Shown here piece by piece: positions 3,694 to 25,284 of a DNA stretch of 64,000 nucleotides (position 1 is its first letter; each line of letters begins with the position of its first letter). This DNA comes from Alteromonadaceae bacterium UBA1282 (lineage in GTDB: Bacteria; Pseudomonadota; Gammaproteobacteria; Enterobacterales; Alteromonadaceae), in the NCBI GenBank assembly GCA_002308075.1, contig DBUU01000114.1:24552-88551 (forward strand), written 5' to 3'. The notes beneath the pieces were generated by a model that was not told where the DNA came from, did not search any database, and saw nothing but the letters and a program-made list of their open reading frames with translations. The translations under genes were made by a program, and so were the position numbers.

Positions 3694-5028
3694 ATGTCTG
3701 AAATGACACCAAGAGAAATTGTCCACGAACTGGACCGCCATATTATCGGTCAGCAAAGCGCTAAGCGCGCAGTCGCCATTGCGCTGCGTAACCGCTGGCG
3801 ACGTATGCAGTTAGCGCCAGAACTGCGCCAGGAAGTCACCCCGAAAAACATTTTAATGATTGGTCCAACGGGTGTAGGTAAAACCGAAATTGCCCGCCGT
3901 CTGGCCAAGCTGGCGAATGCGCCGTTTATTAAGGTAGAGGCAACAAAATTTACTGAAGTAGGTTATGTAGGTAAGGAAGTCGAAACCATCATTCGCGACC
4001 TGGCAGACATTGCGGTAAAAATGACCAAAGAGCAGGAAATGGCAAAGGTGCGCTATCGCGCTGAGGAAGCTGCCGAAGAGCGTATTCTGGATATCCTCAT
4101 CCCGCCTGCCGAAAATGCCTGGGGTGAAAAAGAGCGCTCGGAAGATCGCGGTACCCGCCAGTCTTTCCGCAAAAAACTGCGTGAAGGCAGTCTGGATGAC
4201 AAAGAAATCGAAATCGACGTTGCCCAGCAGCAAATTGGTGTAGAAATTATGGCCCCGCCGGGCATGGAAGAAATGACCAACCAACTGCAAGGCATGTTTG
4301 AAAATCTGTCATCTTCTGGTTCGCAGAAGAAGAAAAAGAAATTGCGCATCAAAGATGCCATGAAAGTGCTGATTGAAGAAGAAGCCGCACGGTTGGTAAA
4401 CAAAGAAGATCTTAAGGAAAAAGCCCTCGAAGCGGTGGAGCAACACGGCATCGTATTTGTGGACGAAATCGATAAGATCTGTAAGCGTGAAGGCGCTAAT
4501 TCAGCTGATGTTTCCCGCGAAGGTGTGCAACGTGACCTGCTGCCACTGGTAGAAGGCTCAACGGTGTCAACCAAGCACGGTATGATCAAAACCGACCATA
4601 TTCTGTTTGTGGCATCCGGTGCCTTCCAGATGAGCAAGCCGTCGGATCTGATCCCTGAATTACAGGGCCGTTTGCCTATCCGTGTTGAGCTTTCAGCGCT
4701 AAAAGTGGAAGACTTTAAACGTATTCTTACCGAGCCGAATGCATCGCTTACCGAGCAGTACATTGAGCTGATGAAAACCGAAGGCGTAACCGTTGAGTTT
4801 GCCGAAAGTGGTATTCAGCGAATTGCCGAAGCGGCCTGGCAGGTTAACGAGAAAACCGAAAACATCGGAGCCCGTCGCCTGCATACGGTGCTTGAACGTT
4901 TGATGGAAGATATTTCTTACGACGCGTCTGAAAAACAGGGCGAGACCTACATCATTGATGCCGATTACGTCAATGAGCACCTTGAGAGCCTGGTGGATAA
5001 CGAAGACCTAAGCCGCTTTATCCTCTAA
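3694..5028 (+). CDS. hslU: ATP-dependent protease ATPase subunit HslU
   Basis: [10 protein letters not shown] start, [25 protein letters not shown]-terminal SRFIL. Confidence 0.98.
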
Positions 5029-5037
5029 GCCCAACCA

Positions 5038-5128
5038 TACAAACCGGCCGGTACGTCTGTACCGGCCAGGCTTTACTTGCCACATTCCACTTACACCGTT
5101 GGTATTTGCGTGTACAAGGTTCTGAAAT
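5038..5128 (+). repeat. Left att-like direct repeat (91 bp)
   Basis: TACAAACCGGCCGGTACGTCTGTACCGGCC...AAGGTTCTGAAAT, near-identical to 8770-8861. Confidence 0.95.
5045..5066. terminator. GC-rich hairpin between hslU and the convergent luxR-like 3' end (second copy at 8777-8798)
   Basis: GGCCGGTAC-GTCT-GTACCGGCC perfect 9-bp stem; no long T-run. Confidence 0.5.
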
Positions 5129-5159
5129 TTCCCCCCACTTAGGTTACATCTTGAAGTGA

Positions 5160-5483
5160 CTAACAGAAAGCAATATCGCATCTGGCAGCACATTGTTTTT
5201 AGCAAACAATGGCAAGGCGTATAAGCCTGGCAAACTCTCAGAAATGGTCGGTCGATACGTTAAGCTCAGTGGTATGAAGCGCGGTGGTGCATGTCATTTG
5301 TTTCGGCATGCGACAGCAACCATTATGCTGGATCACGGCGTGGAGCTTCGGCATGTGCAGGAGATGCTCGGCCATGCTGACATTTCTACGACACAATTAT
5401 ATACGCATGTGTCTCGCATCAAGCTTGGTGAGGTGTACAACAAAAGTCATCCCTCAGCTTTGAGTAATGAGTGTTTATATTAA
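5160..5483 (+). pseudogene. Tyrosine recombinase (XerD-like) C-terminal fragment
   Basis: HLFRH, LGHADISTTQLY; frame extends only to a TGA at 5157, so the N-terminal domain and catalytic Arg are missing. Confidence 0.9.
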
Positions 5484-5498
5484 TCAGTACTAGCAATG

Positions 5499-5516
5499 GT
5501 AATGCAAATGCATTAC
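5499..5516. promoter_or_regulatory. Putative PrlF/YhaV autoregulatory operator
   Basis: Perfect inverted repeat GTAATGCA-AA-TGCATTAC just upstream of the prlF RBS. Confidence 0.6.
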
Positions 5517-5549
5517 TATTGCTGTGTGTACTCAATTGAGGATAGCAAC

Positions 5550-5879
5550 ATGCCGCAATTACCATTACAAACTGAATCAACTTTGACGGAGCGATATCAA
5601 ACGACCGTGCCTAGCGTTGTGCGCAAAGCACTGCATTTGGGTAAAAAAGATAAAATCAGGTTTACGGTGGAGCCTAACGGTAGTGTGACGTTATCGCGTG
5701 CCGAGCCTTCTGAAGATGATCCTGCGTTAGATTCATTTTTGGCTTTTTTAGGCAACGATATTGAACAACACCCAGAGAATATTCAAGCGCTAAGTCCTGC
5801 TATGCAAGCGTCTATTCAATCGTTGGTAGAGGGGGTTGAAATCGATTTGAACGCGCCACTAGATGAAGACGACGACTGA
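5550..5879 (+). CDS. prlF: Type II antitoxin PrlF (AbrB-like)
   Basis: ESTLTERYQTTVP...RKAL N-terminus, DPALDSFLAFL, acidic tail; GAGGA RBS before ATG 5550. Confidence 0.88.
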   Translation: MPQLPLQTESTLTERYQTTVPSVVRKALHLGKKDKIRFTVEPNGSVTLSRAEPSEDDPALDSFLAFLGNDIEQHPENIQALSPAMQASIQSLVEGVEIDLNAPLDEDDD

Positions 5880-5881
5880 TT

Positions 5882-6355
5882 TTGGCGGATAGTAGTTTTG
5901 TTGTAAAAAATGGTTGGACGCTATACGCCCATCCTTTGTTTATAGAGCAGTTAGCATCGTTGACTGCTCAAGTTAACGCTTTTAAAGCACGAGACCCTAT
6001 CGGCTACAAAAAGAAAAACGCGACCAAGCGATTAGCAGCAATAGAGAAGCTAATATTCGAAATCATTCCGAATGATCCTACAGCGACTGAATATCGCCAA
6101 GGTTCAACATTAGGTGACAACAACAAACACTGGTTCAGAGCAAAATTCTTCCAACAATATCGACTCTTTTTTCGCTATCATCAAGCATCTAAAGTTATCG
6201 TTTATGCGTGGGTTAACGATGAAAAAACCAAACGCGCATATGAAAGCAAAAACGATGCATATAAAGTATTTGCTAAACTGCTAGCTTCGGGCAATCCACC
6301 TGATAGTTGGGACGCTCTTTTAAAAATGGCTTCTGCTATAACATCAGATAAATAA
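5882..6355 (+). CDS. yhaV: Type II toxin YhaV (RelE-superfamily RNase)
   Basis: NGWTLYAHPLF, WFRAKFFQQYRLFFRY, AWVNDE, GNPPDSW; directly downstream of prlF. Confidence 0.9.
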   Translation: MADSSFVVKNGWTLYAHPLFIEQLASLTAQVNAFKARDPIGYKKKNATKRLAAIEKLIFEIIPNDPTATEYRQGSTLGDNNKHWFRAKFFQQYRLFFRYHQASKVIVYAWVNDEKTKRAYESKNDAYKVFAKLLASGNPPDSWDALLKMASAITSDK

Positions 6356-6390
6356 TCGTCTTTGAACTGCTCAGAATTAGCGGATCATAA

Positions 6391-6744
6391 AATCGATTAC
6401 TGTACTACAAAGCACGGATTTATCATCCAAAGCTAGGGCGATTCCTGCAAACTGACCCTGTGGGTTATGAAGACCAGATGAATCTTTATGCTTATGTGGG
6501 CAATGATCCGGTTGATATGACTGATCCTACAGGTAAATGTATGACTGATTCTAGTGGAAAGCAGACAAGTGGCATCTGTCCTGTATCGGGCGATAGCAAT
6601 GCAGCGGCGTTAGTCCAGGATAGGTTATCTGATCCAAACAGCATTGCTGGGCAGGTAGAGAAACAATTGAATGACAACGGGTCTATCACATTTGTGGACA
6701 CGACTGTTGTTAGCTCTGCAACCAGCTCTGTCATGACACTTTGA
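6391..6744 (+). pseudogene. Orphan Rhs core with truncated C-terminal toxin region
   Basis: In-frame LLYYKARIYHPKLGRFLQTDPVGYEDQMNLYAYVGNDPVDMTDPTG, the Rhs core ending in DPxG; no credible start codon. Confidence 0.9.
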
Positions 6745-7527
6745 TGGATGAGTACATGGCATATCTCAATGTTTACCGCAAACCGCTTGATGGGTGCAAC
6801 CGCTGTGTGCAGCCAATAAATACGATTTGATATTGTGCGTTAAAACTTTATCAAAAAGATGTTCAATCGTGGCCTGTTAACTGCTGACAAGCTTAGTAGC
6901 ATCGACTTACCCACGGTTGGCAGACCATTACCCAAGGCGAATTTTACTGCCGAGGAGGTCGAGCAAATCCTTGAGCAGCCTTTGTTATATGGCTTTAAGG
7001 GTATGCGAGACCGTGTGATACTTGAAACGCTGTTTGCCACAGGTATTCATAGAATAGAACTGTTGCATCTCGATATTGAGGATGTGGATTTTAATCAGCA
7101 ATTGATTAGGGTAAGAAAAGGCAAAGGTAATCGGGAGAACATTTTGCCAGTGAGTGATAGAGCAGTCGAATGGCTAGTGTTCTATCTGACCAAACTTCGC
7201 CTCAAACTGGCAACCTTACACTCGGGCAGTGCGCTGTTTCTAAACGATAAGGGAGCGCGATACCGTGCTTGCGCGTTATCTGATATGGCCTCGCGGTATG
7301 TTCGGTTTGCAGGGTTTAAGCGGTCGGGCTCTTGTCACCTGTTTCGCCATGCAACAGCCACTATCATGCTGGATAACGGCGCTGACATTCGGCATGTGCA
7401 AGAAATGCTGGTCCATGCTGACATTGCCAGCACACAAATCTACACCTTTGTTTCTCGCTCTAAGCTTCGCGATGTGTACAACAAGACACATCCGTCCGCA
7501 TTAAGCGATAAGAGGTTGTTCAGGTAG
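6744..7527 (+). pseudogene. Tyrosine recombinase (XerD-like), frameshifted and catalytically mutated
   Basis: ORF 6859-7527 has HLFRH and TQIY but TGIHRIEL (Arg to His) and LVH instead of LGH; upstream MDEYMAYLNVYRKPLDG is in another frame. Confidence 0.85.
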
Positions 7528-7584
7528 GGCATAATGGCTATTTCTTGCATGTTGAGGTAAAATCGTAGCAACACTGGAGGGTAT

Positions 7585-7743
7585 ATGAAAAACACCGTTG
7601 CAAAGACTGGCAATAGCCAAAAAGGTCGGTTTACCCCGAATATGGATAACTTCGAAGTAAGCCTGAGCTATGAAGGGCTTGCGCTCAAAAAAAGTAATGA
7701 GCGAAAAAGCATTACCAATTTAAAACGGAAGTATGCTCGATAA
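7585..7743 (+). CDS. Small Fic antitoxin (FicA/YhfG-like), 52 aa, not in ORF track
   Basis: GGAGG RBS; MKNTVAKTGNSQKGRFTPNMDNFEVSLSYEGLALKKSNERKSITNLKRKYAR contains the SxxxEG inhibitory motif; overlaps the fic start by 11 bp. Confidence 0.8.
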   Translation: MKNTVAKTGNSQKGRFTPNMDNFEVSLSYEGLALKKSNERKSITNLKRKYAR

Positions 7744-8332
7744 GTACGGGGTAACACAGGATAGATACTGTTACCCCGATGCTGACGTTCTTATCAATCA
7801 CCTTGATATACGCGACGCGGTGTTATTAGCAGAAGCCGAAGCTGAGTTCACCGCTGAGCGTTACAGAACATACGAAGCCCCCAAGCTAACAATAGCTGAT
7901 TTTACGCTGGAGCATCTAAAACAGCTCCACTATCACCTATTCCAGGATGTCTATGATTGGGCAGGTCAGTTAAGAGATGTTGATATTTCGAAAGGCGGCA
8001 CGCGGTTCTGTACATGGTCACGTATTGAGCCAGAAGCCAATAAGCTATTCAACACTATCCCAACTCTTGCGCATGTAGAAACTGAAGAAGCTTTAATATC
8101 AAAAGTGGCTGATGTATTTTGTGAGATAAACTTACTCCACCCATTCAGAGAAGGAAATGGCCGAATTCAGCGCTTCTTCTTCGAGGAAATGCTATTCACC
8201 TTGGGTTATGATGTGTCATGGCCTCGAATACCCCAGCAAGACTGGATAGATGCCAATATAGCAGGGGTAAATTTAGACTTGTCTCTTCTTGAGGCAATAT
8301 TTGCTCAGGCAATCTCATCCGATAGCGAATAA
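7733..8332 (+). CDS. Fic-domain AMPylase toxin (class I, FicT-like)
   Basis: Canonical HPFREGNGRIQR; N-terminal D.YCYP...VL.N.L.I and YDWAGQLRDVDISKG typical of FicT. Confidence 0.92.
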   Translation: MLDKYGVTQDRYCYPDADVLINHLDIRDAVLLAEAEAEFTAERYRTYEAPKLTIADFTLEHLKQLHYHLFQDVYDWAGQLRDVDISKGGTRFCTWSRIEPEANKLFNTIPTLAHVETEEALISKVADVFCEINLLHPFREGNGRIQRFFFEEMLFTLGYDVSWPRIPQQDWIDANIAGVNLDLSLLEAIFAQAISSDSE

Positions 8333-8534
8333 GAAAAAGGTGCTTGTATAGATGACAGGCATGAAACACGAATTAATTTAACCCAGCTAGATTTATCCAG
8401 CATTGCCACATAGAATCAACGATGGATATCGCTTACGAGGAAGTAAGCTGCTCTTTTAAAACCTGCTGGGATGCACCCCTCCTAAATATCAAAGCCTTTC
8501 TGAAAGATAACAGCATGGCTTGTGAATCCGATGA

Positions 8535-8606
8535 TTACTTTATATGCAGGCACGATACTATGATCCAGTTATCTGGCGGTTTTATCCGAACTATCCAATA
8601 GACTGA
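8535..8606 (+). pseudogene. Second, highly degenerate Rhs core remnant, not in ORF track
   Basis: Reads LLYMQARYYDPVIWRFYPNYPID-stop, matching the Rhs core pattern GLxYMQARYYDPxxGRFxSxDP. Confidence 0.75.
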
Positions 8607-8769
8607 ATAACTTATTTTGGTACTGAAAACGGAATTCCTACATAAGTCAAAATAGAAAATTGAATCCAACTCAATTGCGTCGAACTTGCGGGACTTAGTT
8701 TTAGATATTCATAGGCTTCAGTTGTCTAAAGTGTTTAACTGCCACAATACTATCCTGTAACGCCAAACT

Positions 8770-8861
8770 TACAAACCGGCCGGTACGTCTGTACCGGCCA
8801 GGCTTTACTTGCCACATTCCCGCTTACACCGTAGGGATTTGCGTGTACAAGGTTCTGAAAT
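8770..8861 (+). repeat. Right att-like direct repeat (92 bp)
   Basis: Copy of 5038-5128 differing by two substitutions and an A vs CG change. Confidence 0.95.
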
Positions 8862-9066
8862 AGCGGGCCATCAACGCTGCCCGATTACGGATTTCCAGCT
8901 TGCGGTAAATATTAGCGCAGTGAAATTTCACCGTTCGCTCACTGATAAACAATTGCGAAGCGATGGTCTTGTTCGGTAAGCCTTCGATAATTTTATGCGC
9001 CACCTGAAGTTCACGTTTAGACAACTGTTCCAAATGTTCAGGGCTTAATAACTCTTGATCAAACAT
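8824..9066 (-). CDS. Stand-alone LuxR-family HTH regulator
   Basis: LSKRELQVA...GLPNKTIASQLFISERTVKFHCANIYRKL; GGAG RBS, start overlaps the exporter stop. Confidence 0.88.
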   Translation of the reverse strand: MFDQELLSPEHLEQLSKRELQVAHKIIEGLPNKTIASQLFISERTVKFHCANIYRKLEIRNRAALMARYFRTLYTQIPTV

Positions 9067-11230
9067 GATGATCTCCTTGTTGAGTGGGGGTTGGTAAATC
9101 AGGCGTATAATTGATGGCTACTTCCGTCAGCTGGCCGCCTGCCAGGTGATACCGCTGATGGGCCATTTGAATGGTTTCGCGCCGATGGGCAATAACCACC
9201 CGGGTCATGGGTAATCGGGAAAGATGTTGATTAATAAGCTTTTCACTGTTGGCATCAAGATGGCTGCTGGCCTCGTCGAGTAGCAGCAGAGCCGGACGCT
9301 GATACAAGGCCCGGGCGAGAAATAAACGCTGGCGCTGGCCGCCACTAAAATTGCTGCCACCTTCCTGGAGCAGCGTGTAATACTGCATAGGCAGCCTGGT
9401 GATGGTGTCGTGCAGATTGGCCAGTTGGCAGCACTCTATTAACCGTGGCATGTCGATATGTTGCTGAAAACCACTGACATTGTCGATAACGGTGCCGGAA
9501 AGACACACATCATCCTGCATTACGGCACTGATCCGCTGGGCTGGATCGCGGCTGTTGAGCGGCTTATCGTCAATCAGGATCTGACCTGAAGTGGCCGGAA
9601 GTAAGCCGGTAAGGCATTTAGCCAGGCTGGACTTTCCGTTGCCGCTAACGCCGGTGATTACTACCATTTGGCCCGGTAACACTTCAAGGTTTAGCCCTTC
9701 GAAAAGCGGCGGTTGACCCTGATAGGCAAAGCTTAAATCCTCGATAGTTAGTTTGTGCGCCACAGGTACATGGGCTGGCGCACTGCAAGAAACAGGAGCC
9801 AGTGAGGCAAAGTCTACGGGCGTTTGGACAATATCCGCCAGCCTGTCGAGGTGCACGCGCAATAAACGCCACTGAAGTAATTGTTCGAGTAATCCGTTGA
9901 TAGCTGAATTAAAGCGGTTCTTGTAGCTGGTAAATGCGTACAGCATGCCAACGGTAAAAGCCTGCTCCATCACCAGCGTGGCAGCCAGATAGACGACCAG
10001 TAGGTTTTCAATTCCAAACAGGAGCAGATGCACGATACTAAAACCCATTTCCCAGCGGCGTAAGCGAATATCACGGTTCAGGGTATCGGTAAGTAAATGC
10101 TGCCAGCCATGTAACCGGAACGACTCGAGCTTAAGCATTCTGATTGACTGAATGCCCCTCAGCGTTTCTATAAAGTGGCTGTTTTCCTTCGCGGCACAGG
10201 CAATTCTTTCTTGTTGTAAGCGCTGCACCGGGCCTAGCAAAATTAACCGTAGGGCAAGAAATAACCCCGCAATGCCTACTACCACCAGCATTAGTTTCAG
10301 GCTGTATAACGCCATTAAAATCAGTGTGCACAGCATGATTAGCGTGTCTAAAATGAGCGCGACAATACCCTGACTGATAAAGCGTCTGACTTCCTGCAAG
10401 CTACCAAAACGAGCCACCATGTCACCGATATGGCGCTGGGAAAAGTAACTGAATGGCAGCCGGATCAAATGAGTAAAGACATTTACCGAGAGTTGCTGGG
10501 CGAGGTGCCCAGACATAGCAATGCCGGCAGTCTGGCGGGTAAGATTGGTGATCGCTTCCACAACAATTAGCAGAAAGAAGCCGAGAAACAGCACATTGAG
10601 CAGCGAAGCATCGTTATTGACTATCACTGAGTCGATAACCAGTTGCATATAATAGGGCGATGCCAGCGCAAAACATTGCAGCAGCAAAGACAAAATAAAC
10701 AACACCAGTAAGGAGCGCTTGATACCTACGATACGCTGCCATAACTGGCTGAGCTTTAATGGCTGGCGCAGGTTTTGAGGCGTGAAGTCACTGCCAGGCT
10801 GAAGCTCCAGTGCAATACCGGTAAAGGCATCACTAACCTGTTGCCAGCTAAGACGGCGTTTGCCACATGCCGGGTCCTGAATCTCAATACCCTTCGCTGA
10901 AACTTTGGTTAACACAACAAAGTGCTGCATGTTCCAGTGCAAAATGCAGGGGAGCTGTAGCTCGTTCATATTCTCTGGCTCAAGCTTTAGCGCCCGGCTA
11001 TTGAGGTTGAGTGAGTGAGCGAAATCAATCAGCTGTTTAAGGTTAGCACCCTGCTGGCTGAAGGCGCGTAAGCTGCGTAGCCTGGCCAGGTCTATATTGA
11101 GCCCGTGATAGCCGGCTACCATGGCGATACAGGCCAGTCCGCATTCGGCGTTTTCGGCTTGCAATATCTGCGGCGTCGAACGGCGCCAGCCGAGCTGCAA
11201 GGGTAGTTTGAACAGTGTGGCGGTGCTCAC
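9059..11230 (-). CDS. Peptidase-containing ABC transporter (C39 domain; CvaB/RaxB-like)
   Basis: QAENAECGLAC, LHWNMQHFVVL, DP; TM domain; GVSGNGKS, FSGGQRQR, LLDEASSHLD. Confidence 0.93.
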   Translation of the reverse strand: MSTATLFKLPLQLGWRRSTPQILQAENAECGLACIAMVAGYHGLNIDLARLRSLRAFSQQGANLKQLIDFAHSLNLNSRALKLEPENMNELQLPCILHWNMQHFVVLTKVSAKGIEIQDPACGKRRLSWQQVSDAFTGIALELQPGSDFTPQNLRQPLKLSQLWQRIVGIKRSLLVLFILSLLLQCFALASPYYMQLVIDSVIVNNDASLLNVLFLGFFLLIVVEAITNLTRQTAGIAMSGHLAQQLSVNVFTHLIRLPFSYFSQRHIGDMVARFGSLQEVRRFISQGIVALILDTLIMLCTLILMALYSLKLMLVVVGIAGLFLALRLILLGPVQRLQQERIACAAKENSHFIETLRGIQSIRMLKLESFRLHGWQHLLTDTLNRDIRLRRWEMGFSIVHLLLFGIENLLVVYLAATLVMEQAFTVGMLYAFTSYKNRFNSAINGLLEQLLQWRLLRVHLDRLADIVQTPVDFASLAPVSCSAPAHVPVAHKLTIEDLSFAYQGQPPLFEGLNLEVLPGQMVVITGVSGNGKSSLAKCLTGLLPATSGQILIDDKPLNSRDPAQRISAVMQDDVCLSGTVIDNVSGFQQHIDMPRLIECCQLANLHDTITRLPMQYYTLLQEGGSNFSGGQRQRLFLARALYQRPALLLLDEASSHLDANSEKLINQHLSRLPMTRVVIAHRRETIQMAHQRYHLAGGQLTEVAINYTPDLPTPTQQGDHHV

Positions 11231-12486
11231 AACACACCTCCACGCAGTTCATACAGTGGTTCAAATAACCATTGCATCAGGTTGCGCTCGCGAATGGCTA
11301 TTTCTGCGGCAAAGGTCATGCCGGCTCGCAGGGCAATGCGTTGATTAAAATATTCAATGCTGGTGGCTTGCAGGGTTGCCTTGGCCAGGTACACCGGGGT
11401 GTTTATTGCCAATGGTTTTTGCGCTACTTCCTGTGGCAGTAGCAAGTGAGCAGATACCGAATCGATGGTGGCTTTATAGGTGCCAAACTGGGTATGCGGA
11501 AAGGCATCGTAGCGTAAACTGATGGATTGGCCTGGGGATATCTGGCCCGCCGCGGCGACCGGGATTAACAATTGTGCAGAGACCTCGGCGTTAAATGGCA
11601 TCAGCGAAAGCAGAGGCACATTGCTCTGGGCGAACTGGCCTGGCTTTACATTGAGGTTGGTTACCCGGCCGTTTGTGGACGCGGTAATAATGACTTCCTG
11701 CTGACTGTACTGCTGATCGAGACTTTTTTGCAGTTCACTGATTTGGTTTTCAATACTCAGCAGCTGTAACTGATGGGCGTGTTCCGCTTCGCTAAGGGCA
11801 AACTGGTTGTCTTCAATGGCTTGTAAGGTGGCTATCCATTCGCGCTCAAGATTCTGACGCTGATAGGTTTCGTCGATTCGCTGCGTCTTTAAGGTTTGTA
11901 ATTGCTGGCGGCTGGAAAATCCCTGATGGGTGAGTTCGGTGAACGACTGAATTTGCTTATCCAGTAAGGCCATTTTGTCATCCAGCAACATGCGCATGGC
12001 GGCGAGGCGTGAGCGATCCTCAGTGAGTCGTTGGGCCGTTTTAGTCAGGCGTTGCTGTTGGGTTGTGAAACCTTTCTTGGTAAGCCTGTACTGGCTTTGC
12101 AGACGCTCAATCTGCGTGTCGAGCTCCTGAATCAGAGCGTCGTTGATACTCTGGCCGTTATGTAAAATTGCGTCCCGGGTCAGCCTGATAAGTGGAGTGC
12201 CTTTTTGCACCTGCGTGTTTTCGCTAACCAGCACTTCGCTAACAATAGCGCCTGATGCCGGTCCGTAAACCGGGGTAATACCGCGGGCGGGTTCCAGCCA
12301 GCCTGTTACGGTTTGGGTATAAGTGTAGCGTCCCGCCAACAGCCAGCTTAAAACACCAATTAACCAGCTACACAGCAGCACGGTAATCATAAGAGTGGGT
12401 AGTCTTGGCCTGAGTAATATTGCTCCATCGATTTTTTGCTGCTGTGAAACGACGGCCTGGTGGCGAAATAATGTTTGGCTTTGCAT
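11227..12486 (-). CDS. HlyD-family membrane fusion protein (CvaA/RaxA-like)
   Basis: LFRHQAV N-terminus, one TM, coiled coil, RYDAFPHTQFG, LRAGM; ATG 12486 preferred. Confidence 0.9.
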   Translation of the reverse strand: MQSQTLFRHQAVVSQQQKIDGAILLRPRLPTLMITVLLCSWLIGVLSWLLAGRYTYTQTVTGWLEPARGITPVYGPASGAIVSEVLVSENTQVQKGTPLIRLTRDAILHNGQSINDALIQELDTQIERLQSQYRLTKKGFTTQQQRLTKTAQRLTEDRSRLAAMRMLLDDKMALLDKQIQSFTELTHQGFSSRQQLQTLKTQRIDETYQRQNLEREWIATLQAIEDNQFALSEAEHAHQLQLLSIENQISELQKSLDQQYSQQEVIITASTNGRVTNLNVKPGQFAQSNVPLLSLMPFNAEVSAQLLIPVAAAGQISPGQSISLRYDAFPHTQFGTYKATIDSVSAHLLLPQEVAQKPLAINTPVYLAKATLQATSIEYFNQRIALRAGMTFAAEIAIRERNLMQWLFEPLYELRGGVL

Positions 12487-12770
12487 GGCGTCCATTCCTG
12501 CTGTGGGTTGATGATTCAACCTTATGCCTGAGAGCCCTGGTTCACGGTGAAGGTCAGGCCTGGTGCGCTTATTGAGGGGACGATCGCTGACTGATGTCTC
12601 AAAATGCAGGTGTATGTCTCATTTGTGTAAGCCGTTGAAACACTGGTCTGACAGTTGTTGCAGGTCAAAGGTATGCTGACGGCGGCTTTCCTAATGCAGA
12701 TTGTTAATATATTGTGGTTAGCAAAGAAAGCTCTACACTTGATGTATGTTTTGCCAAGGAAGCCGTAGTT

Positions 12771-14315
12771 ATGTTTATACCCAGTATTTTGCTCCGTCAG
12801 TTGTACACCCATGGGAGCCTGACGCAAACTGAAGATGGTTTGCAGTTTATGCTTAAAAACCGGCTCAAAGATGCCGTGCTCAAACAGGTAGACAGTATTG
12901 CCATAAACGGGGAAGTTATTGCGCCTGAAAATGTCACGCTGCAGGTTGGCCCTGAGCAAATTATGTCGATGACAGAGCTGAATGAAAGCGGTGAAGTACC
13001 TTTTGAGCTTAAGCAGGCCATTACGGTTTACTTAAATAAAACCCTGCCAGTGAGTCCGGAAAAACATACTATCGAACTGGTGTTCCGGGCCTCACCTTTC
13101 GGCAAACTGAAATTCAGCGTTGAAGATAACGTATCGGCGCCGAATCTGGCTGAAGGGCATATTCCCCGCGATCCGCATGATGATTACTCGCCGGGGATTA
13201 TCGAAAAACGCCAGAAGTTCTTTGAAAACTTCTCCGGCGCTAATATTCACCATGTTGGCCAGTACTCCATTGATCCCAATACCCTGCGCGGCAATATCGA
13301 GCACTTCATTGGTGTGGCGCAGGTGCCAGTTGGCGTGGCGGGGCCGGTCACTATCGACGGCGAGCATGCCAAAGGCGATTTTCTGATCCCAATGGCCACT
13401 ACCGAAGGTACCCTGGTTGCTTCTTATAATCGCGGTATGAAACTGCTTAATATGAGTGGCGGGATCAAATCCACCGTGGTGGATGATGCCATGCAGCGCG
13501 CGCCGGTATTTGTGTTTTCTGATGCTCGCGGCGCGCGGGATTTCGTAGCCTGGGTAAACGAGAATATCGATAAAATCCGCGAGGAAGCAGAAGCCACCTC
13601 ATCCATTGCCAAGCTCACTTATATTGACAGTTTCCTGTCTACCAAGTTTGCCTTTTTGCGCTTCAATTACCGTACCGGCGATGCAGCAGGGCAGAACATG
13701 GTGGGGCGCGCTACATTTGCTGCCTGTGGCTGGATCCTCGATCACTATGAAGGCATCGAAAACTTTTATCTGGAGTCCAACTTCGCCACCGATAAAAAAG
13801 CCTCGCAAATTAATATCATGCGTACCCGGGGTAAACGGGTGATTGCCGAAGCGACCATTAAGCGCGAGCATTTGTTGTCGGTAATGCGGGTGGATCCTAA
13901 ACAGATTGATTATCACGGCCGGGTAGCGGGCGTCGGCTCCTTCTTGTCGGGCGTCAATAATACTGGCTTACACTCGCCTAATGGCATTACCGCGATGTTT
14001 ATTGCTACCGGGCAGGACGTGGCCAACGTGTCGGAGTCCTCCGCTGGTATCATGTATTCTGAGCTGACCGAGGAAGGCGATTTATATATCTCCCTGACTA
14101 TTCCGTCGCTCATTGTGGCGACTTATGGTGGCGGTACCGGTATTGGTACTCAGCGTGAGTGTCTGGAATTACTGGGCTGTTATGGCCGGGGTAATGTGTA
14201 TAAGTTTGCCGAAATCGTTGGCGCGGTGGCGCTGGCGGGTGAAATTTCACTGGCCTCTGCAATCTCCAGTTCCGACTGGGTGTCTTCGCATGAGCAGTAT
14301 GGCCGTAACCGGTAA
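12771..14315 (+). CDS. Class I HMG-CoA reductase with extra N-terminal domain
   Basis: EHFIG, PMATTEGTLVAS, TGDAAGQNM, NFATDKK, TYGGGT, C-terminal His; ATG 12771 after AGGA. Confidence 0.88.
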   Translation: MFIPSILLRQLYTHGSLTQTEDGLQFMLKNRLKDAVLKQVDSIAINGEVIAPENVTLQVGPEQIMSMTELNESGEVPFELKQAITVYLNKTLPVSPEKHTIELVFRASPFGKLKFSVEDNVSAPNLAEGHIPRDPHDDYSPGIIEKRQKFFENFSGANIHHVGQYSIDPNTLRGNIEHFIGVAQVPVGVAGPVTIDGEHAKGDFLIPMATTEGTLVASYNRGMKLLNMSGGIKSTVVDDAMQRAPVFVFSDARGARDFVAWVNENIDKIREEAEATSSIAKLTYIDSFLSTKFAFLRFNYRTGDAAGQNMVGRATFAACGWILDHYEGIENFYLESNFATDKKASQINIMRTRGKRVIAEATIKREHLLSVMRVDPKQIDYHGRVAGVGSFLSGVNNTGLHSPNGITAMFIATGQDVANVSESSAGIMYSELTEEGDLYISLTIPSLIVATYGGGTGIGTQRECLELLGCYGRGNVYKFAEIVGAVALAGEISLASAISSSDWVSSHEQYGRNR

Positions 14316-15692: not shown

Positions 15693-18600
15693 TTAGTGGT
15701 TGGTATGCTTCCAGTGATACTGGTGCGCCTTGGCCTCCACTTCTGTCGCCGTTTGCTGCGGCATAAAGGCTTTGTTGTTACCTTCAAAGAAGAACGGCTG
15801 GCGTTTTTGCTTGCTACCCATTTCGTTCATCGTGGCAACGTCATACACGCGGCCGTTAATCACGGTGTAGGTGACATATTCACTGCGACGGATGTCGTTA
15901 AGCACGTCGCCGTCGGTGATCATCAGATCGGCCAGTTTACCCGGCTCAATGCTGCCGAGATCCTTGCCCATGCCAAGATGCGTTGCGCCATCAATGGTAG
16001 CACCGCGCAGAGCTTCCCACGGCGTAAAGCCGCCCTGATTCATCAGCCACATTTCCCAGTGAGCAGCTAATCCTTCACGCTGACCATGCGCACCAATATG
16101 TACACTTACGCCATTATCGCGCAGCTCTTTTGCGTATTCAGCCACATTTACGTGGTTGTACTGATCATCTGGCGCGGTAGGGCGGCGAATGGCACGGCCA
16201 TCCAGTCTGGTAGAAGGGACATAACGTAGCAGGCGTTCGTTCTTCCACACTTCGGTGCGATCGTACCAGTATTCTTCACCCATCAGGCCACCGTAAGACA
16301 CCACAAAAGTTGGCGTGTAACCAAAGTCGGTGGCTTTCCATAACTGGGTGAGGTCGTCATAGCCACGGGCAATGGGCAGCGAATGCTCAAGGCCGGTATG
16401 ACCGTCAACCAGCATGGTCAGGTTTTGCTGGAACTTACCACCGCCTTCCGGCACCACCATCATTTGCTGATTATTAGCGGCCCATAACACCTGCTGGCGC
16501 TGATCACGACGTGGCTGGTTATAGCTTTTCACCGAAATGGCGCCGGCGTCTTTCAGGCGCTGCACATGGAAGTAAGCATCGTCATAGTTATTTATTTGCG
16601 CTTTATAGCCGATACCCTCTGCACCGTACAGAATAGTCCCGGTAGAGTAGATGCGCGGTGCAACGCGTTCACCTGCACGTTGCAGCTCTGACGCGGCAAA
16701 GATTTCAGTGGTATCGTTAGACGGATCGTGAATGGTGGTCACACCGAACGACAGGTTGGAGTATTGCATCCAGTTTTGCTGCGGAATGATCTCACTGCGA
16801 CCCTGTCCGCCGTGGGCGTGGGTATCCACTAACCCGGGCAGAACGGTTTTACCTGAGGCATCAATCAGCATAGCGTCGCCGGGGATATCCACGTCGCCGC
16901 GCTTACCTACCGCGGCAATGCGGTTATCCAGGATCAGCACCACACCGTCTTCGATAACTTCCCGGGTATTGTCGGCATCGCGCATGGTGACCACGGTACC
17001 ACCTACGAGCGCCTTATAACCGCTGGGCTTGTCGCTGGTGGCGGTGAAGCTCAAATCGAGGCCTTCAGAGAGCGGATCCGGCAGTTCATCGGCCGATTTA
17101 CCACCGGTAAAGGCAAACGCGTCTTCCAGCTTACGCTCAAAATAGTAGGGGCCATGGAACCAGCCTACACTGCTGCTATCCGGCGCCCACGTGAGGTACT
17201 CTCCGGCGCGATCAGACAGCTGAGTCACCGGCAGAGAAGACATATTCGGGCCAATTGTCACTTTCTTACCGTTGTCTACGTATGGCGTAACGTAGGTATT
17301 AAACTGATGAACAAATGCAACCCATTTACGATCCGGCGACAGGCGGTATTCCGCTACCTTGTCGGCGCCGTATAAATGCACCCGATGGTCGTCGCCATGC
17401 AGGTTTACACTGGCCAGTTGGGTGGCGCCGTAAGGAGAATCGTAACTGCGTTCGGTAAAGAACAGGCGCTCATTGTCGCCGGCAAAGTGGGGCTGCATAC
17501 CTGAATTGGTGACCTTTTTCGGTTCGCCTTTATCCAGGTCCATCACGTATAAGCCTGGCTCTACCGAATACTTCGGGTCAAGCAGGTAGCCGCCGGTAAA
17601 TTTACGGTAGGTCACTAACTCGCCATCGGGTGAAAACGCCGGCTCTATGTAGTGCCCCGGCTCAGGGGTTATGACTTTGCCCTTACCACCACGGGCAGAG
17701 ACGATGCGAACATCACCTAACTTCTGGTCGTTCCAGGTAGTGTAGATAATGCGCTTACCGTCGGCAGAATAGCGTGGGTAGTATTCATCATGCTCATCCT
17801 GACGGGTGAGGCGTTTCGCTTTGCCACTTTTTAAATCTTTAACGTACAGTTTGCCCAGCGCCTGAAACAGCACAGATTTACCGCCCGGCGATTTTTGCGA
17901 CCAGCGGATCATTTTTACGTTAAAGGTATCCGGTGCCACGTCTACATCAAAACGCAATGCATCGGCGTATTGCAGTTTGGCCTCAACGGCGATATCGATG
18001 GTGTCTGCCGATTGATCTTTTACATTGAGCTTATGAAACTTTCCGCCGGCCCAGTACACAATCGCTTTGCTGTCAGGTGTCCAGTCAAAGTAGGCATAGT
18101 AACCTTCTACACCAAAGCCTTCCTGCATATCGCGCTCCATATCGCGGGTGAGCAGCGTTTCTTCACCGGTGGCAAGGTCTTTAATGAACAGCGCGGTGTC
18201 GTACTTCACCCGACGTAGAAAAGCAATGTACTTACCGTCTGGTGAAGGGGTTGGTACCACGGCGCCGCCAGTACCGGAGATAACGCGGTCTTCTTCACCG
18301 GTAGTGCGATCAAAGCGGGTAATGGCAAAAATGCCTTCCAGCGGATCGCGATTATAGTCGAAGCGGTAACCGCCAGAGGTACTCTGGGTATAGTAAATAT
18401 AGTTGCCATCGTGAGAGAACACCGGATCGGTAATGTTGTTTTGCTCACGTTTACCGGATACCCGCTCTTTAATCGGCAGACCGCTACCGCCGGAATGATG
18501 ATAAATCCAGATTTCGCCCGCCGGGATACTGCGGGTAGAGGTAATGCCTTTGGTCACCACAATATATTCGCCATCCGGGCTCCATTTAGGCGAGTGAATG

Positions 18601-24485: not shown

Positions 24486-25284
24486 AGTGATAATTAAAAC
24501 GCCACAGGAAGTGGCATTAATGCGCGAGGCCGGTCAGTTGCTGGCGCGTGTGTTTGGTGCGCTGGATGAATTTGTTGCTGCCGGTGTAACCACTATGGCG
24601 ATCAACGAATTTGTGGAGCACTATATTGTTGATACGCTTAAAAGCCGGCCTGCCAGTAAAGGGCAGTATGGTTATGAATACGCTTTAAATACCTCTGTGA
24701 ACGAGGTTATTTGCCACGGCGTGCCGTCGGTGGCCAAAGCCCTGCGCAAAGGGGATATTGTTAATCTGGACATTACCCTGGAGAAAAATGGCTACATTGC
24801 CGATAGCAGCAAAATGTACTGTATTGGTGAAGTTTCACCGCTGGCCCACCGGCTGGTAAAAGTCACCTACGAAGCGATGTGGAAAGGCATCGAATCGGTT
24901 AAGCCCGGAGCCCGTATTGGCGATATCGGTGACGCCGTACAGCGGCATGCCGAGCAACATGGTTACAGCGTGGTCAGGGAGTATTGCGGTCATGGCATCG
25001 GCCGCGAAATGCATGAAGAATCCCAAATACTGCATGTGGGAACACCGGGTACCGGACTGGTTTTGCGCGAGGGCATGGTGTTTACCATCGAACCCATGAT
25101 TAATCAGGGCACCCATAAAACCAAACTGAAAAAAGATGGCTGGACGGTGATTACCCGCGACCGAAAATTATCGGCACAATGGGAACATACCATTGCGGTT
25201 ACAGCCGATGGTTACGAAGTGTTAACGCTGCGTCCGGAAGAACAATTGCCGGCCACCTCAAACAAACCAGTGCGACAGCGCTAG
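24478..25284 (+). CDS. map: Type I methionine aminopeptidase
   Basis: NEVICHG, DITLEKNGYIAD, GHGIG, TIEPM, SAQWEHT. Confidence 0.93.
   Translation: MSKVIIKTPQEVALMREAGQLLARVFGALDEFVAAGVTTMAINEFVEHYIVDTLKSRPASKGQYGYEYALNTSVNEVICHGVPSVAKALRKGDIVNLDITLEKNGYIADSSKMYCIGEVSPLAHRLVKVTYEAMWKGIESVKPGARIGDIGDAVQRHAEQHGYSVVREYCGHGIGREMHEESQILHVGTPGTGLVLREGMVFTIEPMINQGTHKTKLKKDGWTVITRDRKLSAQWEHTIAVTADGYEVLTLRPEEQLPATSNKPVRQR

Follow-up and report, generated by a model that had tools for sequence, protein, structure and literature searches.

A probable remnant of an integrative genomic island, carrying two toxin-antitoxin pairs, at the terminator between hslU and a luxR-type gene in Alteromonas

Lambdoid phage 21 and the element e14 insert into the 3′ end of icd in E. 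coli and bring with them a replacement 3′ end for this gene. A locus of comparable layout lies between hslU and a luxR-type gene in Alteromonadaceae bacterium UBA1282 (contig DBUU01000114.1 of assembly GCA_002308075.1), from which a stretch of 64,000 nucleotides (positions 24,552 to 88,551, hereafter the window, in whose numbering coordinates are given) was analysed. The 3.6 kb found at 5129-8750 are probably the eroded remnant of an integrative genomic island, which would have entered in Campbell fashion and most likely has been kept by its toxin-antitoxin (TA) pairs. Like the icd-type islands, the locus has long imperfect repeats of a target gene end, a pseudo copy that is in frame and differs by synonymous changes, a tyrosine-recombinase gene inside the element and a single-copy empty site. 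It differs from them in that the duplicated segment spans two convergent gene ends with their shared terminator, and in that its recombinase, which is dead, resembles XerC and not the enzymes of lambda or P4 type. Nor is the element a prophage, with no similarity detected to any of 50,697 phage records.

Other described systems share single features with this locus. The Gamma-Mobile-Trio (GMT) islands of Vibrio and other Gammaproteobacteria have two tyrosine recombinases (GmtY, GmtZ) and a StbA-like protein (GmtX), and insert at inverted-repeat sites with a circular intermediate (bioRxiv 10.1101/2023.03.28.534373). The likeness lies in their marine gammaproteobacterial hosts and in their cargo of type VI secretion system (T6SS)/Rhs effectors, defence or TA genes. 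Membership of this group was rejected, the GmtY model giving 20.4 bits against a cutoff of 340; the element family considered below has IstA, IstB, a DnaG_N-like protein and one XerC-like recombinase instead. Recombinase-associated acquired interbacterial defence (rAID) clusters occur in Bacteroidales. XerC/D genes are reported to adjoin polyimmunity loci (PMC3482391). Such polyimmunity and orphan-toxin loci also place an XerC/D-like recombinase beside orphan toxin tips and immunity genes and vary in content between strains, but polyimmunity loci are arrays of immunity genes, unlike the combination of IS21-type IstAB, primase-like protein, TA pair and long target repeats seen here.

Mobile DNA stabilised by TA genes is likewise well known, examples being the TA cassettes of the Vibrio superintegron, mosAT of SXT and the TA genes beside Tn3-family resolvases. 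As in those cases, a TA pair of the present locus adjoins a recombinase gene and outlasts the rest of the element, with the toxin being lost before the antitoxin. The difference is that a stabilising role is here putative, and that the Fic protein may serve in defence, as discussed below.

The remnant is bounded by two direct repeats, an attL-like copy at 5019-5128 and an attR-like copy at 8751-8861, identical at 102 of 111 positions with one 1-nt indel and sharing a perfect core of 49 nt (5040-5088 = 8772-8820). An initial annotation, made from the letters of the sequence, had given this pair as 5038-5128 and 8770-8861; the duplication is real and the near-identity of these segments holds (88 of 92 positions), but the left edge had been placed too short by 19 nt. 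Each copy comprises 10 nt from the end of hslU, the intergenic region of 62 bp with its terminator hairpin and 38 nt from the end of the luxR-type gene, the repeat unit thus being the complete convergent intergenic region plus both gene ends. In the left copy, the true end of hslU (TATCCTCTAA), with its true stop codon, is combined with the hairpin (5044-5069) and with a luxR 3′ end that is a pseudo-copy; in the right copy it is the hslU end that is a pseudo-copy (TATCCTGTAA) and the luxR-type 3′ end that is true, with the hairpin at 8776-8801. The hairpin, GGCCGGTAC-GTCT-GTACCGGCC, obtains a terminator-like score on both strands, with 11 pairs on the minus strand, and, with its 9-bp inverted arms, might conceivably be the crossover core within the 110-122 bp. 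The portion of hslU contained in the left repeat is 10 nt in the window and 21 nt in sister lineages, and the repeats of the Fic-only lineages described below are longer (~122 nt) than those of the window (~110 nt).

Both flanking genes are core genes. On the left, hslU (3694-5028, plus strand, 444 aa) was recognised from its open reading frame (ORF), AAA_2 Pfam matches and synteny; on the right, the gene at 8824-9066 (minus strand) encodes an 80-aa GerE/LuxR-type regulator (PF00196, 77 bits). No tRNA or Rfam family was matched in the region. The earlier description of the site as a protein-coding 3′ end plus hairpin, and not a tRNA, is therefore in agreement with the analysis, with the refinement that two coding 3′ ends are involved.

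Since the repeat contains a G+C-rich hairpin, as do many repetitive extragenic palindromic (REP) elements, it could be viewed as a dispersed repeat of the REP, miniature inverted-repeat transposable element (MITE) or terminator type, or even as a chance match, with the interior being ordinary flexible-genome DNA. BLAST of the repeat against the whole window, however, returned only the two copies, with none expected by chance (dinucleotide shuffles). In addition, a degenerate 45-nt core was scanned against one genome per species (185,579 species) and was found in seven stretches from six genomes, all of Alteromonas/Alteromonadaceae, all at hslU-luxR and with one or two copies each. The genome-wide search that had been proposed for the repeat thus gave the opposite of a high-copy element, and confinement to this locus indicates that the repeat is not REP-like. 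It also consists of two gene ends and the region between them, and is single-copy in the empty allele, and so a dispersed repeat or a chance match was rejected as very improbable.

The locus was then compared among related Alteromonas using 20 loci (numbered with the prefix L) obtained by exact-protein look-ups of the LuxR-type protein and HslU from isolates, metagenome-assembled genomes and Tara metagenomes. For each, the interval between the fixed hslU and luxR anchors was excised and compared with the window; L039/45, L041-44, L050, L053 and L054 were added later to the empty and Fic-only groups. Four alleles were identified, namely empty, Fic-only, PrlF/YhaV-only and full. The empty allele (L006, L008, L044) has a length of 268 bp, made up of 79 + 110 + 79, and contains exactly one copy of the repeat. 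This is the single-repeat empty site which the initial annotation had proposed to look for, and its existence shows that the interior is not carried by all relatives. The Fic-only allele, with an insert of ~1.05 kb, is the one present in L001-L004, L007, L009, L010, L039/45, L041-43, L050, L053 and L054. Its order is repeat, 52-bp stub, 21 bp, the last ~15 nt of a recombinase gene, the YhfG-Fic pair, ~55 bp and repeat. The PrlF/YhaV-only allele (1.6 kb) is found in L015, Alteromonas alba strain 190 (L040) and isolate run X17, and the full allele, 99.4-100% identical to the window, in L005/L011, L012-14, L016 and L018. An identical LuxR-type protein is encoded by full, Fic-only and empty alleles, as seen by exact-protein look-up, and the synteny priA-ftsN-like-hslV-hslU is kept in all loci compared. 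L007 has an insertion sequence of the DDE_Tnp_1 type (16430-17530) between priA and rpmE which is absent from the other loci. Identity of the flanks to the window is 97% for A. alba and 91-92.5% for the Fic-only lineages, while the empty-site species stands at ~85% from both.

The interior has a GC content of 43.4% compared with 51.9% and 50.8% for the flanks, which bears out the AT-richer interior previously described, and the recombinase remnants, two TA systems and Rhs pieces reported for it were all found. It begins with a left-end stub of 52 bp (5129-5180) containing GGTTACATCTTGAAGTGAC, which in clade B takes the form of a 6-bp inverted repeat, GGTCAC-N8-GTGACC. The stub shows 88-90% identity between full and Fic-only alleles, and two different deletions start directly after it. 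It is followed by Int′ (5181-5483, plus strand), the 3′ remnant (last ~100 codons) of an XerC-like tyrosine recombinase gene (Phage_integrase, PF00589, fragment at 5193-5483, E-value 1.9e-15, profile positions 97-169 of 172), with 67-75% nucleotide identity to intact genes of its family. Then come, on the same strand, an intact PrlF-type antitoxin of 109 aa (5550-5879; PF15937, 119 bits, whole profile) and an intact YhaV-type toxin of 157 aa (5882-6355; PF11663, 206 bits, profile positions 1-137 of 138). These adjacent genes, both full length by Pfam profile, qualify as a type II TA gene pair, with toxicity being predicted.

The second half of the remnant repeats this order with other genes, all on the plus strand. 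A second XerC-like recombinase pseudogene, Int″ (6741-7527), has 93% nucleotide and 95% amino acid identity to the intact 319-aa relative P0001. It is followed by a 52-aa YhfG-like protein (7585-7743), the ORF of which overlaps the start of an intact Fic-family AMP-transferase toxin of 199 aa (7733-8332; PF02661, 70 bits; motif HPFREGNGR). Class I Fic proteins possess the motif HxFx(D/E)GNGRxxR and are inhibited through the motif [ST]xxxE[GN] of a small upstream protein. With the motif HPFREGNGRIQR in the Fic protein and SLSYEG in its 52-aa partner, which we take to be the Fic-inhibitory motif, the pair falls into the class I Fic / YhfG type. Against NCBIfam PRK10347 the Fic protein scored 178.9 bits, just below the cutoff of 181, and it also matches the PADLOC candidate system PDC-S04 with 248 bits.

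Each TA pair is followed by a piece of an rhs gene. The orphan C-terminal tip 1 (6394-6744, plus strand) reads RLLYYKARIYHPKLGRFLQTDPVG...NLYAYVGNDPVDMTDPTGK in translation and then continues for 66 aa; its core end (RLLYYKARIYHPKLGRF...DPTGK) has no YD-repeat shell. It has 67% nucleotide identity to the orphan tip located after Int-PrlF-YhaV in L021, and has probably lost its 3′ part to a deletion which fused it to Int″. Of orphan tip 2 only a stump is left (8533-8603, plus strand; LLYMQARYYDPVIWRFYPNYPID*), with a core end reading LLYMQARYYDPVIWRF and then a stop. The core ends of the stumps have 84-88% nucleotide identity to those of full rhs genes in L031 and L046. A segment of 35 nt from the Rhs core end (8539-8573) occurs in multiple copies in metagenomes and isolates, its word depth in run X16 being 59.6 against 2-5 in the neighbouring sequence, and many contigs containing it diverge into unrelated sequence on both sides. 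This is due to its being a conserved Rhs core end, and implies that this exact segment recurs in several rhs genes or orphan tips of the source populations. The remaining 147-bp spacer (8604-8750) gave no homolog and is absent from Fic-only alleles. No recombinase-family homology was detected in 5100-8800 beyond Int′ and Int″.

Neither recombinase can be functional. In addition to the truncation of Int′, Int″ lacks codons 1-58, has two frameshifts in 6745-6858 and carries TGIRR>TGIHR (catalytic Arg to His) and GH>VH at the catalytic His. No functional integrase gene therefore stands beside the att-like repeats, both being truncated, and the island is a relic which is unable to move by itself. 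Further loss can be followed between alleles. The A. alba, L015 and X17 allele corresponds to the window minus 6403-8540, and the sister lineages retain the Fic pair only. The shrinkage by deletion suggested in the initial annotation is borne out by these losses, along with the lesions of Int″ and truncation of Int′. The A. alba junction, CGATTACTGTA|TATGCAGG, combines the start of one Rhs stump with that of the other, with the 6402/8541 joint seen in an isolate run, and the deletion is an in-register crossover between two diverged copies of Rhs core-end coding sequence.

The same deletion bears on a different explanation, in which the locus would be an integron- or rAID-like array, formed in situ by XerC-like recombinases that insert and delete TA and Rhs-tip cassettes at one short site, GATTACTNTA, with the flanking repeats being incidental. 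The A. alba endpoints do fall at equivalent positions of two such sites (6395-6404 and 8533-8542), alleles differ by whole modules, closely related recombinases precede different TA pairs, and XerC/D genes are on record beside polyimmunity loci (PMC3482391). However, GATTACTNTA codes for the conserved LLY at the end of the Rhs core, so that recombination between diverged Rhs copies accounts for the in-register crossover just as well; both recombinases are dead, and the deletion junctions of clade B do not lie at GATTACTNTA-type sites. The recombinase also scored only 103 bits with the integron integrase model (cutoff 265), and an integron was rejected for this reason and for the lack of any attC-like repeat in the interior, where the repeat families consist of the two recombinase fragments and short weak matches in two or three copies. 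A cassette array is accordingly doubtful. As a crossover site specific to the element, GATTACTNTA was dropped, being better read as the start of Rhs homology. An IMEX/pdif module was likewise rejected, as 4901-9100 contains no site with ≤9 mismatches to the dif of E. coli, the dif1 of V. cholerae or a pdif sequence.

The TA pairs are the best preserved part of the relic. The 52-aa antitoxin is intact in every allele with the Fic pair (seven lineages), and Fic is broken in sister lineages by a frameshift (L003) or an in-frame stop (L009). Loss of the toxin before the antitoxin is the usual order of decay for a TA pair. RNA-derived contigs from four (meta)transcriptomes cover both TA pairs only and not the recombinase fragments or the repeats, with coverage being judged from assembled contigs and subject to the caveats of these. 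Most likely the TA pairs, intact and transcribed, account for the persistence of the remnant, through post-segregational killing or because they confer a benefit in defence; the match of Fic to the candidate anti-phage system PDC-S04 means that the benefit could be defence rather than addiction.

The duplicated gene ends also retain information on where the second copy of the repeat arose. The pseudo-luxR end in the left repeat still translates as FRTLYTQIPTV*, and over the copied codons two synonymous changes, ATC>ATA and CCT>CCA, are all that separates it from the real end. The pseudo-hslU ends, compared over the right repeats of seven lineages, show differences that are almost all at synonymous third positions (TTT/TTC, ATC/ATT, CTC/CTG/CTT/CTA), and in Fic-only lineages this repeat carries a longer pseudo-hslU copy which reads LSRFIL*. 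Junk drift following a local duplication should not leave a synonymous-only pattern, and the sample, though small, lends support, without amounting to proof, to a second copy that had evolved in another lineage, as the end of a functional gene, and arrived on incoming DNA.

To the right of the locus, the LuxR-type gene overlaps the end of a gene for a C39-peptidase ABC exporter (9059-11230), which is followed by a HlyD/AprE-type gene (11227-12519) and then by a divergent gene for a 533-aa HMG-CoA reductase (12714-14315). The region 8824-14315 resembles a bacteriocin-type export operon with a tiny regulator, consisting of a helix-turn-helix (HTH) domain only, as its last gene, and the right repeat of the island consequently touches the terminator of this operon.

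The two recombinase remnants were used to search for the element from which they came. A protein search with Int″ returned 376 relatives, the best being P0001 (319 aa, 95% identity), and genomic context was read for seven of these with 45-95% amino acid identity. At all seven loci, the intact recombinase gene comes after genes for IstA, IstB and a 160-284-aa (DnaG_N) protein. IstA matches the NCBIfam IS21 transposase (209 bits, cutoff 160), IstB its NCBIfam model (247 bits, cutoff 200), and long forms of the third protein match DNAG_N and Toprim_2. Most loci have an opposite-strand gene of ~270-340 aa ahead of this block, which is absent from the plasmid-like L035-L038 and replaced by a same-strand gene in L046, and most also have a gene of ~90 aa, with a weak PrtN/excisionase-like match in two. 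The slot after the recombinase is variable, containing PrlF/YhaV, RelE/HTH, DUF4258/HTH, MqsRA or defence-like genes, and in most family loci read is followed by an orphan Rhs tip with an immunity-like gene. A full-length rhs gene is often found directly upstream of the block (L031/32, L046, L061). No convincing IS21-type terminal inverted repeats were found around the IstA...TA block in the three loci inspected for them.

The order Int-TA-Rhs tip is seen in L021, L031, L036 and L055 and occurs twice in the window, which therefore holds two right ends, Int′-PrlF-YhaV-tip 1 and Int″-YhfG-Fic-tip 2, and Int′ and Int″ derive from two different copies of the element. Genes for IstA, IstB and the DnaG_N-like protein are not present in the window, where no large ORF elsewhere has a suggestive size (judged by size, the ORFs being unannotated), and appear to have been deleted.

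Two intact members show how such elements sit in their hosts. Pseudoalteromonas sp. KG3 (CP098524.1) has a 7.5-kb element with a 62-nt perfect flanking repeat, which has a full rhs gene on one side and an orphan tip on the other. This element (L032, 4338-11956; the same arrangement is present in L031, L033 and L034) combines a new Rhs tip with an immunity-like membrane ORF of 59 aa, with orf337 (minus strand) and with a PrtN-like gene of 88 aa; in addition it has IstA, IstB, an ORF of 154-171 aa, the XerC-like recombinase and a RelE/HTH pair. Its appearance is that of a vehicle for swapping Rhs toxin tips. The second is a 12.8-kb island of Pseudomonas alcaligenes (L055, LZEU01000001.1) with 90-nt flanking repeats (50-139 and 12871-12960, 76% identity). 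It encodes a KAP NTPase, the IstA-IstB-DnaG_N-recombinase block, MqsRA, an orphan Rhs tip (LYNYFRDYDPQLGRY...DPFGLE) and a TPR protein, and its right repeat is located 24 nt beyond the 3′ end of a convergent amine-oxidase core gene. The layout is that of the window, with recombinase, TA pair, Rhs tip, long imperfect repeat and convergent gene in succession, and it is mainly for this reason that the repeats of the window are attributed to an element of this kind. No flanking repeats were found in L046, L059 and L061 within the 20 kb compared.

Other members vary in setting and cargo. L035 shares a plasmid-like backbone (ParB, ParA, KfrA, Rep) and the recombinase block with L036-L038 and is identical to them until 35 nt into the Rhs tip (position 11866), where it switches to chromosome-like genes; the switch coincides with the point where a convergent FAD-binding gene ends, which gives the impression that a plasmid-borne element had recombined there. 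In the Alteromonas macleodii plasmid NZ_CP098773.1 (L046, 32060-47855 in the record), the block sits directly 3′ of an RHS core-domain gene and is followed by MerR, ATPase and S8 peptidase genes instead of a TA pair. The AAA + S8 pair is also found after the recombinase in L061, suggesting defence-type cargo in this slot.

The intact members also help in weighing a route that needs no site-specific recombinase. A plasmid or transduced circle from a related Alteromonas, carrying a copy of the hslU-luxR intergenic region, could have been inserted by RecA, the recombinase remnants then being mere cargo. The repeat of 110-122 bp with its 49-nt perfect block is sufficient for RecA-dependent recombination, the recombinase remnants do not adjoin either repeat in the canonical fashion, and both modules have Rhs stumps of their own, as if copied from an rhs locus elsewhere. 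This leaves unexplained, however, why the circle should have held exactly this segment with sharp boundaries at both ends, and the long repeats of intact family members at unrelated sites in P. alcaligenes and Pseudoalteromonas point to a property of the element. Insertion by RecA is for these reasons unlikely, if somewhat less so than a cassette array.

The favoured explanation remains that of an integrated element, as the initial annotation had proposed, and is supported by the unique repeats, the single-copy empty site and the foreign composition of the interior. In this scheme, a circular island would have integrated in Campbell fashion at the terminator between the convergent hslU and luxR-type genes in an ancestor of the lineage, bringing its own attachment segment of ~110-122 bp (hslU end, hairpin and luxR end). 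Both host genes would thereby have kept complete 3′ ends, with the segment left on either side as an imperfect direct repeat. Integration may have occurred in the ancestor of the occupied lineages, or repeatedly by related elements. A tyrosine recombinase would have catalysed it, as we infer from the islands, bounded by long repeats, in which intact relatives are found. The parent island would have carried an Xis/PrtN-like gene, IstA, IstB, a DnaG_N-like protein, an XerC-like recombinase and a TA pair, usually along with an Rhs tip and immunity gene. Because pieces of two right ends are present, two family copies may have been there, in tandem or with one nested inside the other. Successive deletions, one of them the in-register crossover between the two Rhs core-end stumps, would then have left only 3′ fragments of the recombinases, the two TA pairs and the Rhs stumps, with the TA pairs slowing loss of the relic or conferring a defence benefit.

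A number of observations weigh against this scheme. The empty allele is found only in the outgroup (~85% flank identity) and every lineage at ≥91% is occupied, which gives no evidence that the island was gained or lost recently; in the closer lineages sampled it has the look of an ancient insertion, fixed in decayed forms, and not of one that was mobile in recent times. The YhfG-Fic pair of the Fic-only alleles has just 81% nucleotide identity to that of the window, compared with 91-92% for the flanks between these clades, making independent insertions of related elements possible. An intact island at this site was absent from all genomes and metagenomes searched: the exact-protein look-ups of LuxR and HslU retrieved no larger island, and a metagenome scan for less-decayed alleles with the 52-bp left-end motif gave only Fic-only alleles and chance matches. 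No third, internal copy of the repeat nor a scar was found between the two modules, leaving tandem accretion unproven, and no donor lineage with the variant luxR end ATACCAACG was found. The possibility that the right repeat abuts the right-end motif of the family (GGATCATAAA..GATTACTNTA) was also rejected, since alignments for the Fic-only alleles were no better than those of shuffles (p 0.15-0.86), and the link between the recombinase family and the repeats is consequently one of analogy.

As a relic of an integrated island the finding is ordinary; what sets it apart is the clean allelic series and an attachment site composed of two convergent gene ends and their terminator. The hslU-luxR terminator is marked as an integration site in a protein-coding context instead of a tRNA. 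The series of empty, Fic-only, PrlF/YhaV-only and full alleles across abundant marine Alteromonas lineages documents the steps of decay, in which the attachment-site duplication and TA pairs outlast the recombinase and cargo. The dead recombinases have moreover pointed to an apparently unnamed block of IS21-type IstAB, primase-like protein, XerC-like recombinase, TA pairs and orphan Rhs tips, literature searches for a published description or name of the IstAB-recombinase-Rhs association having given nothing specific. It is tentatively proposed, at somewhat short of even confidence, that the relic comes from an undescribed family of gammaproteobacterial islands comprising an Xis/PrtN-like gene, IS21-type IstA and IstB, a DnaG_N/Toprim-like protein, an XerC-like recombinase, a TA or defence slot and usually an Rhs tip with immunity gene. 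Such islands would insert beside or into rhs (62-nt perfect repeat) or beside convergent 3′ ends (90-122-nt imperfect repeats), spreading Rhs tips, immunity and defence genes, and may range over Alteromonas, Pseudoalteromonas, Pseudomonas, Shewanella-like bacteria and others. If this is true, the block would be a vehicle by which Rhs toxin tips, immunity and defence genes are exchanged among marine and soil Gammaproteobacteria.

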